DNA of 11,626 bases from Candidatus Omnitrophota bacterium. GTDB taxonomy: Bacteria > Omnitrophota > Gorgyraeia > Duberdicusellales > 4484-171. The notes under the pieces were generated by a model. That model saw only the letters and a list, made by a program, of their open reading frames with translations. It had not been told where the DNA came from and made no database searches. The position numbers and the translations under genes are program-made. The stretch is taken from positions 1-11,626 of the forward strand of contig JAMWCT010000045.1 in assembly GCA_023819525.1 (NCBI GenBank), read 5' to 3'. Position 1 is the stretch's first letter; the number at the start of each line of letters is the position of its first letter. Shown here one piece after another: positions 2,387-11,626 of this stretch.

Positions 2387-3772
2387 TTAATTTTTTTGCG
2401 AAAGCAAGCTAAATGTTATAAGAAAAATCGCTGAGGCAAGAAATCCAAGAAGATTATGAGGGTAATTTGATGGGCTAAAAGTTTTTAAAATTATCCAAAA
2501 AAGCACTCCTCCAATCGCTGCGCCTGTTGCACCAAAACTATTAGCTTTTTTCCAATATACACCTGCTATCAAAGGTGCAACTACTCCTACTAAAAGTATC
2601 CCCCACGCCTCTAAACAAAGTTGGTATATGTTTTTAAAATAAATAGCCAAAACTAAAGAAAGGATACATAAAAAAACAACACTTAATTTACAACTATTCA
2701 ATTTAAATCTCTCACTTGCTTTTGGCAATATTAAAGGAACAATATTATGCCCAATAATGCTGGCTGGTGCTAAAAGTGCACTATCAGCGCTACTCATAAT
2801 TGCTGAAAGAAGCGCACCAACCATTAAAGCCATAAAAAGTGGTGATAGATAACGTAAAGAAAGTTCTATGAGGATATTTTTTTCACCGATTTCATTAAAA
2901 ACAATTCTGCCAAAAATCCCTAAAAAAACAGGAATTAATCCAACACTTACATAAAGAAAACCTGCTATTATAGAAGACCATCTTGCAATTTTTGGGCTTT
3001 TAGAAGCCATAATTCTTGCAAAAAGATCTTGTGCTGGAAGTGAACCTAACCCAACAATTATCCAAGCTTGAATATAATTTAACCAATCTAGAAAAGATTT
3101 ACTTTTCGGATAAAAATAAAAAAATTCTTTACTAATTTTTGCTTTTGCAATATTTAACCCACCTATATCTTTTATAAAAATAGGTAAAAGTATAACTAAT
3201 CCACAAATTAGAATTAATCCCTGAAATAAATCTGTTAGTGTATCTGCCCACATACCACCTGCATAAGTATAAACTATGACTACTATTGTAGAGATCATAA
3301 TAGAGTTTATAAGAGGTAATCCTGTTAAAGAATTTAGAATATAACCAAAAGCCAAAAGTTGCGCTCCTATCCAACCCAAATATACTGGTATATAAATGAT
3401 ACTTAAAAATGCTGCAACTTTTTTGCTATAACGAAATTGAAAATAGTCTATTATAGTTTGAATATTTAAACTTCTAAGATATCTTGCAAAAAATAAGCCT
3501 GAAATAATAAGACATAACCCTGCGCCAAAAGGATCAGCAATTACCCCTAATATTCCTTTTTCGTAAGCCGTCGCTGATGACCCCATACAAGTTTCTGCGC
3601 CAAACCAAGTGGCAAATAATGTCCCTATAGATAAAAACCAACCAAGTCTTCCGCCGGCTATAATGTAGTCTTTAGTATTTTTTATTTTTTTACTTGCAAA
3701 ATATCCAATAAATAGCATTACTATCATATAAAAGATTACACCCAAAATTATATAAATCTGTTTTTGTTCCAT
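2387..3772 (-). CDS. Sodium:solute symporter family (SSF; PutP/PanF-like) transporter, substrate unknown
   Basis: 461 aa and highly hydrophobic, with about 12-13 predicted TM segments. The N-terminal region Y..AGR.LG.F....TL.ATWFGAE...G....AY..G is the SSF signature region. The start lies 9 nt after the stop of the upstream metalloprotease gene. Confidence 0.88.
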   Translation of the reverse strand: MEQKQIYIILGVIFYMIVMLFIGYFASKKIKNTKDYIIAGGRLGWFLSIGTLFATWFGAETCMGSSATAYEKGILGVIADPFGAGLCLIISGLFFARYLRSLNIQTIIDYFQFRYSKKVAAFLSIIYIPVYLGWIGAQLLAFGYILNSLTGLPLINSIMISTIVVIVYTYAGGMWADTLTDLFQGLILICGLVILLPIFIKDIGGLNIAKAKISKEFFYFYPKSKSFLDWLNYIQAWIIVGLGSLPAQDLFARIMASKSPKIARWSSIIAGFLYVSVGLIPVFLGIFGRIVFNEIGEKNILIELSLRYLSPLFMALMVGALLSAIMSSADSALLAPASIIGHNIVPLILPKASERFKLNSCKLSVVFLCILSLVLAIYFKNIYQLCLEAWGILLVGVVAPLIAGVYWKKANSFGATGAAIGGVLFWIILKTFSPSNYPHNLLGFLASAIFLITFSLLSQKN

Positions 3773-3781
3773 TTCGTTTGA

Positions 3782-4330
3782 TTAAAAACCTAAAATTTTA
3801 ATACAATTGTTACAAAAATGATAATCTTTTCTATCTGTATCCAAAAGAGAATTAGAAAAATGCATTACGCATTTAGGGTTAGAACAATGATTTAAACCAA
3901 AAAGATGACCTATTTCATGGACCGCCTCTTTAAGTGCACGTTTTAAAAAAAGTTCTCTGTCTTCTTCTAAACCATAATACGATTGGCGCAATCTAGTAAT
4001 AGAAATAATACAAACACCTTTTTTTGGTTCTGCTTCGCCAAAGACAAAATTTAATCCTTCTGCATACAGGTCTTTATCGATGATTGCTAAAATTTTTTGA
4101 TTTTCTTTAGGGGTTTGGAGGGCATTTAAGATAAGCAAAGCAAGATATTGATCTCTCATTTGAGCATACGCATATCGAGGTATATCATATGAACCACCAA
4201 TATTAACTTTTGTAGAAAAAATCTCTTCTAAATTTTTGCTTAAGTAATTTAAAACTGCTTCTTCTATATTGCCAAAAGTAATAATTTCTAAAGACATTTT
4301 CTCTAATGCATAAACTTGATAGATATTCAA
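3782..4330 (-). CDS. amzA: Archaemetzincin-like zinc metallopeptidase (peptidase M54 family)
   Basis: HEIGHLFGLNHC-SNPKC-VM-(17 aa)-CNNC matches the archaemetzincin consensus HExxHxxGxxHCx4CxMx17CxxC. The start is uncertain: alternative ATGs at 4330 and 4297 both lack a strong SD. Confidence 0.8.
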   Translation of the reverse strand: MNIYQVYALEKMSLEIITFGNIEEAVLNYLSKNLEEIFSTKVNIGGSYDIPRYAYAQMRDQYLALLILNALQTPKENQKILAIIDKDLYAEGLNFVFGEAEPKKGVCIISITRLRQSYYGLEEDRELFLKRALKEAVHEIGHLFGLNHCSNPKCVMHFSNSLLDTDRKDYHFCNNCIKILGF

Positions 4331-4430
4331 AAATATAAAAAATAAAAAAAAGATAAACAGCGTTCTTTTTTTATAAATTAACCAACTTGTGTTTATAGTT
4401 ATCTTATGGAAAATGTAAATTATGTATATT

Positions 4431-5165
4431 TTATTTTTGTCCTAGTATTTTTGCAAATTCAACAGGAACTAAAATTATTAAACTATTCTGTTCTGCGCCA
4501 ATTTCTTGCCAAGTTTGTAATTGTCTTAAAACTAAAGCATTAGGGCTTTCAGCTATTGTTTTAGCGGCATTAGCAAACATCCTACTTGCTTCCTCTTCGG
4601 CTGAGGCTTTAGTTAATCTAGCTCTTTTTTCTCTTGCCGCTTCTGACTCTTTAGCCATTGCCCGCTTCATATTATCGGGTATCTCAATATTTTTTATTTC
4701 TACACTTAAAATATTTACCCCCCACTCATCTGTGGGTCCTTGTAGCGTTATTAAAACTTCATTTCCAATCTTATCTTTACTCATTAACAAAGTATCTAAA
4801 TCATACTTACCCACAATGTCTCTTAATTTTGATTGGGCTAACAATGTAGACGCATAAGAAAAATTCTCTACTGCAATTACAGATTTTTTGGCGTCAAAAA
4901 TTTTATAATATACAACCGCATCAATTTTAACAGGCACAGAATCTTTGGTCATGACCTCTTGTGGTATAACATCCATTGTGCGTATCCTCATATCTACATG
5001 ATATACGCTATCAATTATAGGAATAACCCATCGCAGTCCTGGATTTATTACTTTTACAAATTTACCAAACCTAAAGACAACTCCACACTCCCACTGAGAA
5101 ATAACTCTTATACCTGAAATGCCTATAACCACACCCATCCACAAAATTACTTTTATCCAAAACAT
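4431..5165 (-). CDS. SPFH/band-7 (stomatin-like, slipin) membrane protein
   Basis: 244 aa. An N-terminal membrane anchor is followed by the SPFH core (CGVVFRFGKF...PGL....P..D.V..VD.R....D...Q.V.TKD.V...DAVVYY.I.D) and a C-terminal coiled-coil and Ala/Glu-rich region. A strong SD, GGAGGTG (5170..5176, minus strand), lies 4-5 nt upstream of the ATG. Confidence 0.9.
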   Translation of the reverse strand: MFWIKVILWMGVVIGISGIRVISQWECGVVFRFGKFVKVINPGLRWVIPIIDSVYHVDMRIRTMDVIPQEVMTKDSVPVKIDAVVYYKIFDAKKSVIAVENFSYASTLLAQSKLRDIVGKYDLDTLLMSKDKIGNEVLITLQGPTDEWGVNILSVEIKNIEIPDNMKRAMAKESEAAREKRARLTKASAEEEASRMFANAAKTIAESPNALVLRQLQTWQEIGAEQNSLIILVPVEFAKILGQK

Positions 5166-5203
5166 TTCTCACCTCCTATATTTTATAGTACATATTAAAA
5201 AAA

Positions 5204-5914
5204 TTACAGGGTTTTAGCCAAAAGGCTAAGTCTTTGAAGAACCCCTATTAAGTTCTCTTGCTGTAGATCTCTTCTTAAAACACAATTTTCTTTTTTGATT
5301 ATAATCTTCTTACCATCTATAATAATAGCATTAAATCCATTATTAAACAACTCTCTTATTGTATTTTTTATACTCATATTGTTAAGATAAAACATTACTT
5401 CTGTTGGCTTATTTGAAAATATTAAAAATTCTCTATCAAACATTTCATCAGTGGTCTTTACTCTATTGAGAATGCCAAATTTTTTACCAAGATCAAGTAA
5501 AAAATAAATAGACTCTTTATAAATACTCAATCTAAAAAAAGAATTTTTAAATAAAGAAATTATTAAATAAAGTGGAGTAGTGTTGCTACCGGCTACAAGC
5601 GAAATAGAAAATTTAAGTCCTTGATATTCTCCAATAAAGGTTGGAGTAAAGTAATATTTAGAAACAGTGCCATTTAGGAAAGTTGATAATTCTTTTAGCG
5701 CATCTATTTTCTTTTTACTAGAATAAAAAATAAGTACAAGTATAAGTATTATAATTATAGGCGAAATTATTATATATATGATATTTTCACTCATAAAATC
5801 TGTTTTTGATTTTTTAAAATACTTACCTGTGTTTTCTTTAAACAAATATATTATACTACAAAACCTAAAAAAAATCAGTTTTTTAAAAATTTTGTATAAG
5901 AGCACTAAAGTCAA
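5204..5914 (-). CDS. Hypothetical single-pass membrane protein immediately upstream of, and probably co-transcribed with, the stomatin gene
   Basis: The ORF is open over 236 codons in AT-rich DNA. A strongly hydrophobic segment, IIYIIISPIIIILILVLIFY, is followed by a ~170 aa soluble domain. I recognise no family. The true start may be the internal Met at 5794 (MSENIIY..). The gap to the stomatin gene is 38 nt. Confidence 0.5.
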   Translation of the reverse strand: MTLVLLYKIFKKLIFFRFCSIIYLFKENTGKYFKKSKTDFMSENIIYIIISPIIIILILVLIFYSSKKKIDALKELSTFLNGTVSKYYFTPTFIGEYQGLKFSISLVAGSNTTPLYLIISLFKNSFFRLSIYKESIYFLLDLGKKFGILNRVKTTDEMFDREFLIFSNKPTEVMFYLNNMSIKNTIRELFNNGFNAIIIDGKKIIIKKENCVLRRDLQQENLIGVLQRLSLLAKTL

Positions 5915-7395: not shown

Positions 7396-8607
7396 CTATA
7401 AATAGATTATATCGTCTTTATAAAACAAAGAAAGAAATAGTAACATATAATCTCTTAAGTGCCGCGTAATGAGAAAGTTATTTCGGATATGTTCCCTGCC
7501 ATTTTGGCCTAATTTTTTAGCATATTCTGGGCTATTTAAAAATTGTTTTAATGCAAATGCTGCGCCTTCAATAGACCGGCATAATAGCCCCGAATATTTA
7601 TGCTTTATCTGCAAAGGTATGCCACCTACATTAGAGGCAACTACTGGTTTTGCCTTCCAGAGGGATTCTGTAACAGTTAAACCAAAACCTTCCTTTAGAG
7701 ATTTTTGAATAATTATTGTTGAGGCGCGCTGTAATGCATTCACTTCTATATCATTATGTGGTAGAAGAATAACGTGAATGTCTTTATCTTGTTTTGCTTT
7801 TTCTTTTACTTCTTCAAAAACTTTTAAGCCTTCTGGATCATCAGCGGCTGTTCCCCCGGCTAAAATGAGTTGACAATCAATATATTTTTTTACAAGTAAA
7901 TAAGCATCAATCACGCCTATCGGATCTTTTAAGCGATCAAAACGAGAAATTTGGGTAATAATAGGTTTATCTTTTGAAATATTATATTTTTTTAGGACAC
8001 TATCTATAATATTCTGGGGCAATTCTTTATTTTTGTCACTTAAAGGATCAATGGAAGGTGAGATTAGAAATTGCCTAATCGGAAATCTGTGTGAGAAAGC
8101 CGGTGCAGAAAACACTGCTGCATCGTATTTGGTTATAAAATCCATAAGAAATCCAAAAATTCTTTCATTAGGAGTAGAGAGATCAATGTGACAACGCCAA
8201 ATCCATAGATTATTAGATTTTTTCTTTACAAGAACAATTGGTTGGGGATCATGAATAAAAACGATATCTCCATAGATATTTATCTCTTCGAGATTACGAA
8301 GGCTATTCTCCATAAATATATCAAAATCTCGCTGAGTAATTTCTTGTGGTTTCCCATGCAATGCATTATGAAACTTTTTAGTCACCTCAAAAAAATCTTC
8401 TCCACCTTTTATGATATCCCATCTTGCATCCACCCCAACTTCTTTTAATAGAGGAACCATGCGATTTAATATCTCGGCAACCCCACCCCCAACTGAAGTA
8501 GAATTAATATTTTGAATTATCTTACCTTTTAGTTTTTTTGCAATTAATCTCAGGTCATCAATTATAGATTGCCCAACAATAGGAATATAGTCTTCTATTT
8601 TTATCAT
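7396..8607 (-). CDS. treT: TreT-type trehalose glycosyltransferring synthase (GT4; NDP-glucose + glucose <-> trehalose)
   Basis: 403 aa. Against the Pyrococcus/Thermococcus TreT sequences I recall, it shares motifs along its whole length: NSTSVGGGVAEIL, VFIHDPQP, LWIWRCHIDLS.PN, SPSIDPLSDKN.EL, KPIITQISRFD, AGG.A.DDPEG, and EGFGLTVTESLWK.KPVVASNVGGIPLQI. The ATG overlaps the stop of the upstream gene as ATGA (8604..8607). Confidence 0.85.
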   Translation of the reverse strand: MIKIEDYIPIVGQSIIDDLRLIAKKLKGKIIQNINSTSVGGGVAEILNRMVPLLKEVGVDARWDIIKGGEDFFEVTKKFHNALHGKPQEITQRDFDIFMENSLRNLEEINIYGDIVFIHDPQPIVLVKKKSNNLWIWRCHIDLSTPNERIFGFLMDFITKYDAAVFSAPAFSHRFPIRQFLISPSIDPLSDKNKELPQNIIDSVLKKYNISKDKPIITQISRFDRLKDPIGVIDAYLLVKKYIDCQLILAGGTAADDPEGLKVFEEVKEKAKQDKDIHVILLPHNDIEVNALQRASTIIIQKSLKEGFGLTVTESLWKAKPVVASNVGGIPLQIKHKYSGLLCRSIEGAAFALKQFLNSPEYAKKLGQNGREHIRNNFLITRHLRDYMLLFLSLFYKDDIIYL

Positions 8608-9278
8608 ATGCTACTAATTCTATTTTCAATTATTTTTACTAAGGTTTTACGTAGATCTTCTAAGGTATAGGTGTAAGGGTCAAACCTTGAGATTTCTCTA
8701 GCTAATTCTTCATCAGAAAGAGAACTTTCTATCCAGTTAGAAAAATCATTGGTATTTTTTTCTAGTCTTAAGCGCGCTTCAAAAACATGAAAATATATAG
8801 AATCTATAGTTATCTTTTTTAAGATTTCCACGAATTCTTTTAAGTCATATGCAATAAAATTTGTGGGTAAAATAAAACTTATCGATTTCATAAAATGGAA
8901 TTCTTCGCCTTCTCTTGCAAAACTTAATTTAGCTAATGGATTTTCTTTTAAATAATTTTCTATTGTTTGGATTATTTTTTCTCTAAGGCTATGTATATTA
9001 GAAAATTGAATTGTATCAATACTGGCCAATTTTTCTGCCAATTCATCTTCTCCTAATACTTCTCTTACCCAATAGGCAAAATCATTGGGTGGTTCAGGAG
9101 AAAGATATTGGTGTTGTTGCAAGAATCTATGTGTGTGATGATAGATACAAGAACCAGACACTTTTTTTAGAAGTTCTAAAAGCTGCAATAAATTAGAAGC
9201 CTTAAAACCGGTCAACTCGGTTAAATGTATTCGCGTATAAAACCTAAATGGTGTTTTTGCTTTTTTTAATTCTGCCAT
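8604..9278 (-). CDS. Uncharacterised ~224-aa protein built from an internal tandem duplication, embedded in the trehalose operon
   Basis: The ORF-table start at 9296 is a TTG. The first ATG (9278..9276, MAELKKAKTPF..) lies 4 nt after the OtsB stop. The two halves align clearly: LLELLKKVSGSCIYHHTHRF with FVEILKKITIDSIYFHVFEAR; NDFAYWVREVLGEDELAEKLASID with NDFSNWIESSLSDEELAREISRFD; LREKIIQTIENYL with LRKTLVKIIENRI. I recognise no family. Confidence 0.7.
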   Translation of the reverse strand: MAELKKAKTPFRFYTRIHLTELTGFKASNLLQLLELLKKVSGSCIYHHTHRFLQQHQYLSPEPPNDFAYWVREVLGEDELAEKLASIDTIQFSNIHSLREKIIQTIENYLKENPLAKLSFAREGEEFHFMKSISFILPTNFIAYDLKEFVEILKKITIDSIYFHVFEARLRLEKNTNDFSNWIESSLSDEELAREISRFDPYTYTLEDLRKTLVKIIENRISSI

Positions 9279-9282
9279 TTTA

Positions 9283-10071
9283 TTATAGTTCTGCAATAAG
9301 CCTTAAAAAATTTCTTACCTCTTGTGTATTTTTTAGATAATACTGCGCTTCTGTTTTTTTAGGTCTTCCAACAAAAATAGTAATTCCTTTATTGTGCAAC
9401 ACCTCAAAAGCATCTTCATCAGTTAAGTCATCGCCAAGATAAATAGGCATAGTTTCTTTTTTTGTAAAACCAGCATTTAATTTCTCAAGTAGCCACAACA
9501 TTGCTCTACCTTTATTCCAGACCACTGGTGGTGTTATTTCAAAGGCTTTTTTTGCTTTTTTAATCTTTATTTTATTTACTTTTTTATAGGCAGCGGTTGC
9601 TTGATGTAGAATTTTTTTCACTTTTGGTATATTGTTTTTTTTAACTAAACGATAATGTAGGCTTAATGATAACCCTTTATCTTCTATAAACGTTCCTTTT
9701 ATTGTAGATAAATTTATTTTTAACTTATTCCTTATATTTTTAAGTATGTGTTTATATTTAGAGGAAGTTGGATACTTAAACTTTATTTTTGGGCCTTCTA
9801 TTTCTAAACCATGATTGGCGGCATAAATAACTCTATTAATACCTATCTTTTTTTTAATATCTTTTAATGCTCTACCACTAATAATGGCTAATTGACAATA
9901 CCTATTCTTTATCAATCTGCGCAATAGTTTTTTAGTTTCTGGCAATAATGTTGCTTCTTGAGGTGTTTTTGCAATAGGTGTTAGTGTGCCATCGTAATCC
10001 AAAAATAAAATTATATTTTTGTTATTAAATTTTTTCTTTAATTTATCCCACTCATCAAAAAAATATTGCAT
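9283..10071 (-). CDS. otsB: Trehalose-6-phosphate phosphatase (HAD superfamily, OtsB type)
   Basis: 262 aa. HAD motif I is LFLDYDGTLTPI, motif II is AIISGR, and the ANHG.E. and KG.A......GDDLTDEDAF motifs are typical of trehalose-phosphate phosphatase (TPP). The start lies 12 nt after the GT20 gene stop. Confidence 0.9.
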   Translation of the reverse strand: MQYFFDEWDKLKKKFNNKNIILFLDYDGTLTPIAKTPQEATLLPETKKLLRRLIKNRYCQLAIISGRALKDIKKKIGINRVIYAANHGLEIEGPKIKFKYPTSSKYKHILKNIRNKLKINLSTIKGTFIEDKGLSLSLHYRLVKKNNIPKVKKILHQATAAYKKVNKIKIKKAKKAFEITPPVVWNKGRAMLWLLEKLNAGFTKKETMPIYLGDDLTDEDAFEVLHNKGITIFVGRPKKTEAQYYLKNTQEVRNFLRLIAEL

Positions 10072-10083
10072 AAAACTTTTATG

Positions 10084-11626
10084 CTACATTTTCTTTAAGG
10101 CCGCCAATTCCTCAATAATATTTGCTGCCCAGCGGTAAACATTGTTTTCTATTATAGATTTTCGCATATTCTCCATACGTTTCCTTTTTTCTTCTATAGG
10201 CATTTCAATTGCTAACTTTATGGCATCTGCAAATTCTTCAATGTGATAAGGATTGATCTGTATAGCATCGGTTAACTCCTTCGAGGCCCCTGTAAATTGA
10301 CTTAAAATTAAACTTCCTGATAAATCCTTCTTTGCCGCAACATATTCTTTAGCGACTAAGTTCATCCCGTCATGCAAAGAACTGACGATACAAAAGTGTG
10401 CTAACATATAGTAAGGTTCTATTTTTTCTTGTGAGAAATGCCCTTTAAGATATATTATCGGCTTCCAGTTTTCATCAAGATACTTCCAGTTTTTCTTCTC
10501 GATTAGTTCATCTATTTCTCCTATAAGTTGATGATAGCGCTGGATATGCGTTCGGCTTGGAGCAGCCAATTGGATAAAAACAATTTTTTTCTTATATTTA
10601 GGATATTTTTCTAAAAATCTATCTATAGCCAATATCCTTTCTATTATACCCTTGGTATAATCAATTCTATCTACACCAACACCAACTATTTTATCTTTTA
10701 GGTTAAATTCTTCTTTCAATTTTTCAACCTCTCTTATTGCCTCACTATTAGATTTTATATTATTAATATAGCCATCTATACTTATAGGATAGGCCCGCAC
10801 ATATGTTTCCTTTCCGTGTCTTACTACACTAAATTTTTCTGTATCCACTCTAGATTCAAGAAGTCTATTTGCGGTGTCAAGGAAATTGTTGCAGTGATTT
10901 TGCACATGAAATCCAACAAGATCACTTCCTAACAAACCATTTAATATTTCTTCTTGATAAGGACAAATCAAAAAGTTTTCCGGATTTGGCCAAGGAATAT
11001 GCCAAAATAAAGCAATCGTTGCGTCCGGACGTTTTTCTTTAAGCATTTTTGGAAGCAAAGTAAAGTGATAATCTTGGATAAAAATAAAAGGGCTCTTTAC
11101 TGGTAGTTCTTCCAAAATACTTTCACAAAACTTTTGATTTACCTTTTTATACATCTGCCAATCCTTTTCTCTAAAAATAGGCCTTGTGTGGGCGTTGTGA
11201 CAAAGTGGCCACAAGCCTTCATTTGCAAATCCATAATAGTAACCTTCTTCTTCTTCTTTTGAAAGCCATACTCTTTTTAAGATATATCGGTTGTCTTCTG
11301 GTGGAACACCAAGTTTATTTTTAGAATTGACAAATTTTTTATCAGCATTTCCACTACCATGAGCAATCCAGGTGCCACCACAAGCGCATAAAATAGGGTG
11401 TATAGCAGTAACCACCCCACTTGCAGGTCTAATGCATTTTGGCAAGCCAGTAGTTTCATCTAAAACGTGCATATAAGGTTCTCTGTTTGACACCACAAAG
11501 AAAGCATTGTCTCCTATTTTTGCATGGATAAGGTCTTTTAATTTTTTCTCTGTCCAGATTTCTTCTTCGTGTAAACGCGCCTGGGCTTCATCAGAAATTG
11601 TTCTTCTAGCAACCCTTAAAGACAAT
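10084..11626 (-). CDS. otsA: GT20 alpha,alpha-trehalose-phosphate synthase family enzyme (OtsA-like); the 5' end may continue beyond the window edge
   Basis: At least 513 aa. GT20 core motifs are present: VVSNREPY, GG..IAHGSG, YYYGFANEGLWPLCH, FIQDYHF.LLP, LFWHIPWP, LLG.DLVGFH, GVDRIDYTKGI, and LHDGMNLVAKEYVAA. The first codon at the window edge is TTG (11625..11623), so the true N-terminus is probably outside the window. Confidence 0.88.
   Translation of the reverse strand, partial: LSLRVARRTISDEAQARLHEEEIWTEKKLKDLIHAKIGDNAFFVVSNREPYMHVLDETTGLPKCIRPASGVVTAIHPILCACGGTWIAHGSGNADKKFVNSKNKLGVPPEDNRYILKRVWLSKEEEEGYYYGFANEGLWPLCHNAHTRPIFREKDWQMYKKVNQKFCESILEELPVKSPFIFIQDYHFTLLPKMLKEKRPDATIALFWHIPWPNPENFLICPYQEEILNGLLGSDLVGFHVQNHCNNFLDTANRLLESRVDTEKFSVVRHGKETYVRAYPISIDGYINNIKSNSEAIREVEKLKEEFNLKDKIVGVGVDRIDYTKGIIERILAIDRFLEKYPKYKKKIVFIQLAAPSRTHIQRYHQLIGEIDELIEKKNWKYLDENWKPIIYLKGHFSQEKIEPYYMLAHFCIVSSLHDGMNLVAKEYVAAKKDLSGSLILSQFTGASKELTDAIQINPYHIEEFADAIKLAIEMPIEEKRKRMENMRKSIIENNVYRWAANIIEELAALKKM

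Follow-up and report, generated by a model that had tools for sequence, protein, structure and literature searches.

The 11,626-nucleotide (nt) stretch of Candidatus Omnitrophota DNA analyzed here (contig JAMWCT010000045.1 of GenBank assembly GCA_023819525.1; the whole stretch is called the window below) carries in its 3' third four closely packed genes on the minus strand, otsA, otsB, a gene of the DUF5752/OrfY family, and treT. The DUF5752 gene (8604..9278, minus strand) encodes 224 amino acids followed by a stop codon, with its ATG at 9278 and its TGA at 8604-8606; this ATG was chosen over an upstream TTG at 9296 because homologues begin at the same methionine. It is preceded by otsB (9283..10071, minus strand), which encodes a trehalose-6-phosphate phosphatase of 262 amino acids (PF02358, E 1e-44; TIGR00685, 3e-50, above the cut-off), and by otsA (10084..11625, minus strand), encoding a trehalose-6-phosphate synthase of glycosyltransferase family GT20 (PF00982, E 5.6e-122; TIGR02400, 6e-127, below the equivalog cut-off). 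The otsA reading frame extends to the edge of the window, with its true start and upstream region beyond it. The DUF5752 gene is followed by treT (7396..8607, minus strand), which encodes a TreT-type trehalose synthase of family GT4 with 403 amino acids (PF21269 TreT_GT1, E 1.6e-52) that matches the TreT structures of T. uzoniensis (6ZJ4, E 2.3e-124) and P. horikoshii (2X6Q, E 7.7e-101). A first-pass annotation of this DNA, prepared without database searches, had named the same three neighbors, OtsA, OtsB and TreT, and the domain matches agree with it. It had also described a start 4 nt from the OtsB stop and a stop overlapping the TreT start; the otsB stop codon TAA lies at 9283-9285, with 4 nt between it and the DUF5752 ATG, and the DUF5752 TGA and the treT ATG overlap as ATGA (8604-8607), which bears out this reading of the junctions and confirms translational coupling.

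The product had been described as unrecognized and without a family; it clearly belongs to the Pfam family DUF5752 (PF19027; score 237.4 bits, cut-off 23; E 1.3e-70), the match spanning protein residues 9-218 and profile positions 2-208 of 208, and the structure of its Thermoproteus tenax orthologue has been available since 2014 (PDB 4CSO, 'The structure of OrfY from Thermoproteus tenax'). In a phmmer comparison, residues 5-219 of the window protein align with residues 5-212 of the 216 residues of OrfY (E 3e-23, ~29% identity). The family comprises 5365 clusters at 90% identity (E<=1e-3) and 862 representatives at 50% identity, and at least 579 species genomes contain a match; NCBI names the relatives 'DUF5752 family protein'. 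A literature search found no paper on DUF5752, PF19027 or OrfY, the original TreT paper being outside the texts searched. The Pfam scan of the window protein returned DUF5752 alone and no transmembrane, helix-turn-helix or nucleotide-binding domain, in agreement with the motif reading of the first-pass annotation. The window protein is a typical bacterial member of the known, functionally uncharacterized OrfY/DUF5752 family and not a new kind of protein.

The T. tenax protein is homologous to the window protein over its full length, and its gene likewise lies directly upstream of treT and overlaps it. OrfY is crenarchaeal whereas the window protein is bacterial, and T. tenax has the orfY-treT pair only, whereas the window gene is placed inside an otsA-otsB-DUF5752-treT operon. 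The His-rich helix of the first repeat of the window protein (HHTH..QQH) and the FEARLRL helix of its second repeat are each kept only in part in OrfY.

Internal repeats and conserved residues

The DUF5752 protein consists of two copies of a unit of ~105 amino acids, close to the duplication of a ~100-residue unit that had been proposed from the sequence alone. Residues 10-108 align locally with residues 127-219 at a score of 117, compared to 27.1 +/- 4.7 and a maximum of 65 among 2000 shuffles (z=19); family profiles of the first and second halves, built on 83 diverse relatives, align over 103 columns (hhalign probability 99.9%, E=4.2e-31). An AlphaFold2 model computed from the 83 relatives (predicted local distance difference test score, pLDDT, 94.7; predicted template modeling score, pTM, 0.87) depicts a soluble alpha/beta protein, and a fold test against the OrfY family, with its two tandem repeats of a beta-hairpin and helices, gave the same fold, which has so far been seen only in T. 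tenax OrfY. According to this model, the window protein is a soluble cytoplasmic pseudo-dimer of two beta-hairpin-plus-helical-bundle repeats. The repeats were delimited by self-alignment, by hhalign of the halves and by DSSP assignment of the AlphaFold2 model. Repeat 1 (residues ~5-112; 8943..9266, minus strand) is predicted to form a long beta-hairpin (residues 11-27) and then five helices, and holds H48 and the motif NDFAYW (residues 65-70; 9069..9086, minus strand), located at the N-terminus of helix 3. Repeat 2 (residues ~121-223; 8610..8918, minus strand) is predicted to form a beta-hairpin (residues 127-143), again followed by five helices, and holds H164, the FEARLRL segment and the motif NDFSNW (residues 177-182; 8733..8750, minus strand). 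Both motifs had already been quoted in the first-pass annotation.

In the alignment of the 83 relatives, F13, H48, W70 and W182 are invariant, and D66, F67, D178, F179 and H164 are nearly so; H48 of repeat 1 is the equivalent of H164 in repeat 2. The first copy had been singled out as His-rich, and the stretch IYHHTHRFLQQHQ is indeed present, but across the family only its H48 is conserved. Like residues are thus kept at corresponding places of both repeats (H48/H164, N65-D66/N177-D178, F67/F179, W70/W182), and tryptophan, aspartate, asparagine and histidine are typical sugar-contacting residues. One possible consequence is that DUF5752 is a small-molecule sensor that binds trehalose, glucose, a sugar phosphate or a nucleotide sugar at the paired H and ND-F-x-x-W elements; a binding site on the pseudo-dyad might be made up of these mirrored elements, and trehalose itself is twofold symmetric. 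We regard this explanation, the main alternative to the one favored below, as somewhat unlikely, if worth keeping in mind. The NDFxxW motif is placed in the AlphaFold2 model at a helix N-terminus, where asparagine and aspartate often serve as structural caps, and a fold similarity to known sugar-binding proteins was looked for and not found.

Gene neighborhoods across lineages

The genomic context of the family was examined in 80 species-level Omnitrophota genomes, in which all loci were of the Omnitrophota type, and around 11 divergent family members from outside this phylum that were looked up singly, of which one (P0260) was dropped and 10 were counted. Together with the Omnitrophota loci and the window, the 10 outside lineages make up 12 contexts. 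Every one of the 80 Omnitrophota loci on a sufficiently long contig retains the order otsA-otsB-DUF5752-treT intact on one strand, and in 73 loci the spacing between the two reading frames, DUF5752 stop to treT start, falls mostly at -17 to +6 nt. In 12/12 contexts the next gene downstream of DUF5752, whether the latter is free-standing or part of a fusion, is a PF21269 TreT gene, and the two usually overlap. In T. tenax the overlap between orfY and treT is 4 nt; in Pyrobaculum ferrireducens a divergent gene for a mechanosensitive channel of the MscS type adjoins the DUF5752-TreT pair; and in a metagenome-assembled genome of Nitrospirota the pair stands in a cluster that also contains amylase, GlgC, a glycosyltransferase of family GT2 and a short protein with the MscS transmembrane (MscS-TM) segments. 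In two lineages a fusion gene of trehalose-phosphate synthase and trehalose phosphatase (TPS-TPP) lies directly upstream of DUF5752-TreT, with a full MscS gene ahead of it in one of them, and in two lineages a trehalose phosphatase gene is found upstream. TreT is the sole constant neighbor; the others vary by lineage (OtsAB, TPSP, GlgA-like, TreS/Mak, amylase/GlgC or none).

The first-pass annotation had suggested an accessory factor of trehalose metabolism and had named the linkage of homologues to trehalose genes as a check; with the DUF5752 gene leading into TreT throughout the 12 contexts, and with the fusions described below, this suggestion is strongly backed. Its even-handed tie to OtsA, OtsB and TreT did not stand, since TreT alone is constant across lineages and OtsA and OtsB are lineage-specific. 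The link to trehalose metabolism has strong support, and within it the connection can be assigned more narrowly to TreT.

A precedent that had been drawn from Thermoproteus concerns a different protein. In the msc-gt-tpsp operon of T. tenax, the activator of TPSP is a 387-residue glycosyltransferase of family GT4 with a GT-B fold (Zaparty et al., 2013, PMC3634074), and not a protein of the OrfY type; Pfam finds no glycosyltransferase domain in the window protein, the fold of which is unrelated to GT4 GT-B. The true T. tenax counterpart of the window protein is OrfY in the orfY-treT pair. The TPSP activator nevertheless illustrates a co-encoded protein outside the pathway that complexes with a trehalose-synthesizing enzyme and thereby switches it on, which is the logic proposed here for DUF5752, and its operon also holds a mechanosensitive channel gene (PMC3634074). 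The two cases differ in their targets, TPSP for the activator and, as proposed, TreT for DUF5752, and the proteins are unrelated in sequence and in fold.

Two candidates from these surveys were set aside. The apparent DUF5752-TreT fusion P0260 (L090, 5001-5930) contains garbled stretches and is located on a contig rich in broken genes; it is most likely a frameshift artifact. In the Nitrospirota locus, the gene for a 415-residue protein that precedes DUF5752 was considered as a split maltokinase and rejected as such, the match covering 84 residues only at E 0.007.

Several further features of these loci were recorded. A same-strand MscS gene (~351 amino acids) occurs in 28/80 Omnitrophota loci, where it is placed between otsA and otsB or immediately ahead of otsA (for example L010, 651-1328, and L019, 2204-2902). 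These genes are complete and have their own C-terminal domain, and the idea that DUF5752 is a detached channel domain in Omnitrophota was rejected. Otherwise identical Omnitrophota operons contain two types of OtsA, with either ~72-83% or only ~50% identity to the window OtsA (loci listed for this observation: L009, L014, L032, L042, L043, L046, L057, L065, L076), which suggests that otsA was replaced inside a conserved operon frame. GT-A-like proteins of ~415-430 amino acids with weak GT2 matches recur in DUF5752/TreT clusters (L087, 6750-7997 and 14288-15580; L084, 6799-8046), one L087 copy carrying an HDCD motif; they co-occur with a 232-residue MscS-TM protein and may be part of a further compatible-solute route.

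The remainder of the window contains, at 288-2313 on the minus strand, genes for a GDP-mannose 4,6-dehydratase (PF16363, E 1e-145), a NusG-like protein of 168 amino acids and an HTH_17 protein of 82 amino acids, a set that resembles the antiterminator arrangement of polysaccharide loci. A sodium:solute symporter gene is located at 2387-3772. At 3782-5165 on the minus strand, a gene for an M54 archaemetzincin-type peptidase (motif HEIGHLFGLNHC) adjoins one for a Band 7/SPFH protein, and an open reading frame of 236 amino acids at 5204-5914 on the minus strand matches nothing in Pfam and seems to contain one hydrophobic segment.

Domain fusions and sequence evolution

Among the best 150 of the 50%-identity representatives, 15 are fusions in which an MscS protein, consisting of transmembrane segments and beta-domain, carries DUF5752 at its C-terminus; three are maltokinase::DUF5752 fusions, whose N-terminal part matches Mak structures of the M. 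tuberculosis type (E 3.5e-49), and one joins trehalose phosphatase (TPP) to DUF5752. A TreT gene directly follows the fusion gene in all three kinds that were looked up (MscS, maltokinase and TPP). In the MscS fusion P0123, DUF5752 begins no more than 8 residues past the MscS beta-domain, so that the usual alpha-beta domain cannot be accommodated. The fusions and the adjacency of TreT therefore place the work of DUF5752 on the cytoplasmic face, alongside trehalose synthesis, conversion and solute release.

The MscS fusions represent a channel lineage in which the cytoplasmic alpha-beta domain has been replaced by DUF5752, and in which the gene is found directly upstream of TreT (L081-L083; the L081 gene at 2948-4330); P0123, P0124, P0126, P0130, P0135 and others are examples. 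The metagenomic L084 cluster (3354-5591, 8050-8751, 8846-9499) contains genes for a TreS-like amylase, a GT4 protein, maltokinase::DUF5752, TreT and a GT2 protein; further on, a 233-residue protein consisting of the MscS-TM part only is followed by a second, free DUF5752 gene, and this pair looks like a split form of the MscS::DUF5752 fusion.

If DUF5752 were primarily a ligand-binding sensor, the signal would be passed in cis to MscS, maltokinase or TPP in the fusions, and in trans to TreT where the protein is free. The attachment of DUF5752 to the C-termini of a channel and of two distinct enzymes resembles the distribution of regulatory ligand-binding domains, and MscS relatives with C-terminal ligand-binding domains exist, such as the bCNG channels, which combine a pore module with a foreign cytoplasmic domain much as the MscS::DUF5752 proteins do; the window DUF5752 protein, in contrast to the bCNG-type arrangement, is free-standing. 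A generic sensor, however, would be unlikely to keep one and the same neighbor, yet TreT follows in 12/12 contexts, even after the fusions. The channel fusions also permit a bolder proposal, namely that DUF5752 serves for docking and sensing and forms a physical link between TreT and MscS-type channels, in fused and possibly in free form. This seems unlikely to us; if it were true, membrane tension or cytoplasmic trehalose would directly set the making versus the release of the solute, in a one-step osmosensing circuit that is built on a unique fold and conserved from Crenarchaeota to Omnitrophota.

The fusions also bear on the name under which the OrfY structure was deposited, 'ORFY PROTEIN, TRANSCRIPTION FACTOR' in 4CSO, which would make DUF5752 a transcription factor regulating the trehalose operon. 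Regulators are often encoded beside their target genes; here, however, metabolic enzymes carry the domain in fused form, as does a membrane channel at its cytoplasmic end, and neither Pfam nor the fold reveals a helix-turn-helix or other DNA-binding domain. The family is mildly acidic (median isoelectric point 6.1, net charge -4; OrfY 5.7), and a mid-operon position with overlapping stop and start codons points to enzyme-like stoichiometry and not to the low expression of a regulator. The transcription-factor label is poorly supported, and we consider this function distinctly unlikely.

Mean Kimura distances across 51 complete Omnitrophota operons amount to 0.36 for DUF5752, 0.27 for TreT, 0.40 for OtsA and 0.81 for OtsB; DUF5752 evolves about as slowly as the neighboring enzymes and is under strong purifying selection. 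The correlation of distance matrices is highest for DUF5752 and TreT (r=0.69), and once the contribution of OtsA and OtsB is taken out, a partial correlation of r=0.59 is left; the remaining gene pairs yield r 0.22-0.49 and partial correlations <=0.25. This mirror-tree signal fits co-evolution of the pair, in a supportive capacity only. Conservation as tight as that of the neighboring enzymes, histidine and aspartate residues that are invariant or nearly so in both repeats, and a gene that is always found inside sugar-metabolic clusters could also be read as signs of an unrecognized trehalose or glucan enzyme, for example one that supplies or removes a substrate of TreT and uses the conserved His/Asp pairs for catalysis. 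A small, mostly helical pseudo-dimer for which no similarity to any enzyme fold was found, and which has no cofactor or nucleotide-binding motif, makes such an enzyme very unlikely; the repeated occurrence of the domain as a C-terminal appendage on unrelated proteins better fits a regulatory or adaptor module, and apart from the conserved His/Asp nothing specific speaks for catalysis.

A candidate partner of TreT

The explanation that we favor, and to which we give about an even chance, is that DUF5752 is a non-catalytic, dedicated and translationally coupled partner that binds TreT and, as a regulatory or adaptor subunit, ties it to the osmolyte system of the cell. DUF5752 and TreT would be made in fixed proportion from their coupled gene pair, and the DUF5752 protein would then bind TreT. 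Through this contact, trehalose synthesis by TreT could be linked to the OtsA/OtsB route, to maltokinase and to MscS-type release valves; where DUF5752 is fused to MscS, maltokinase or trehalose phosphatase, it would play this role while attached to that protein. Family membership, fold, duplication, purifying selection, the gene pair and the fusions are observed; physical contact with TreT, the direction of any effect on its activity, and any ligand are inferred. The proposal of a small-molecule sensor overlaps with the proposed TreT partnership and is compatible with it, the main difference being that ligand binding would be the primary activity.

Several points weigh against a TreT partner. 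Recombinant T. tenax TreT is reportedly active without OrfY, and, to our knowledge, the TreT genes of the Thermococcales reside in a trehalose/maltose transporter cluster without an OrfY gene; the partner would therefore be dispensable for catalysis, and its role would be that of a modulator. The mirror-tree signal could also arise if both genes were inherited or transferred as one unit. The conserved NDFxxW motif may reflect helix N-capping and core packing instead of a functional site, and the depositors of 4CSO chose to label OrfY as a transcription factor.

A stable hetero-complex of trehalose-pathway enzymes is known from the mycobacterial TreS:Mak (Pep2) complex (PDB 5JY7), the maltokinase half of which shares homology with the portion preceding DUF5752 in the maltokinase::DUF5752 fusions. 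The mycobacterial Mak differs in having no DUF5752 domain, and in TreS:Mak the two enzymes contact each other directly, with no adaptor protein between them.

Among stress protectants trehalose is a major one, which gives interest to the control of the TreT route in prokaryotes; DUF5752, for its part, has had a crystal structure since 2014 and is still a family without an assigned function. The genomic context yields a testable hypothesis, in which DUF5752 cooperates with TreT and provides its connection to the release and conversion of osmolytes, based on an invariant, coupled DUF5752-TreT gene pair in two domains of life and on the fusions to MscS, maltokinase and trehalose phosphatase. It is this family-wide pattern, more than the window gene itself, that offers a route to assigning a function. 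If the hypothesis is true, it would provide an annotation for several thousand 'DUF5752 family protein' entries, and would add a regulatory layer to trehalose metabolism.

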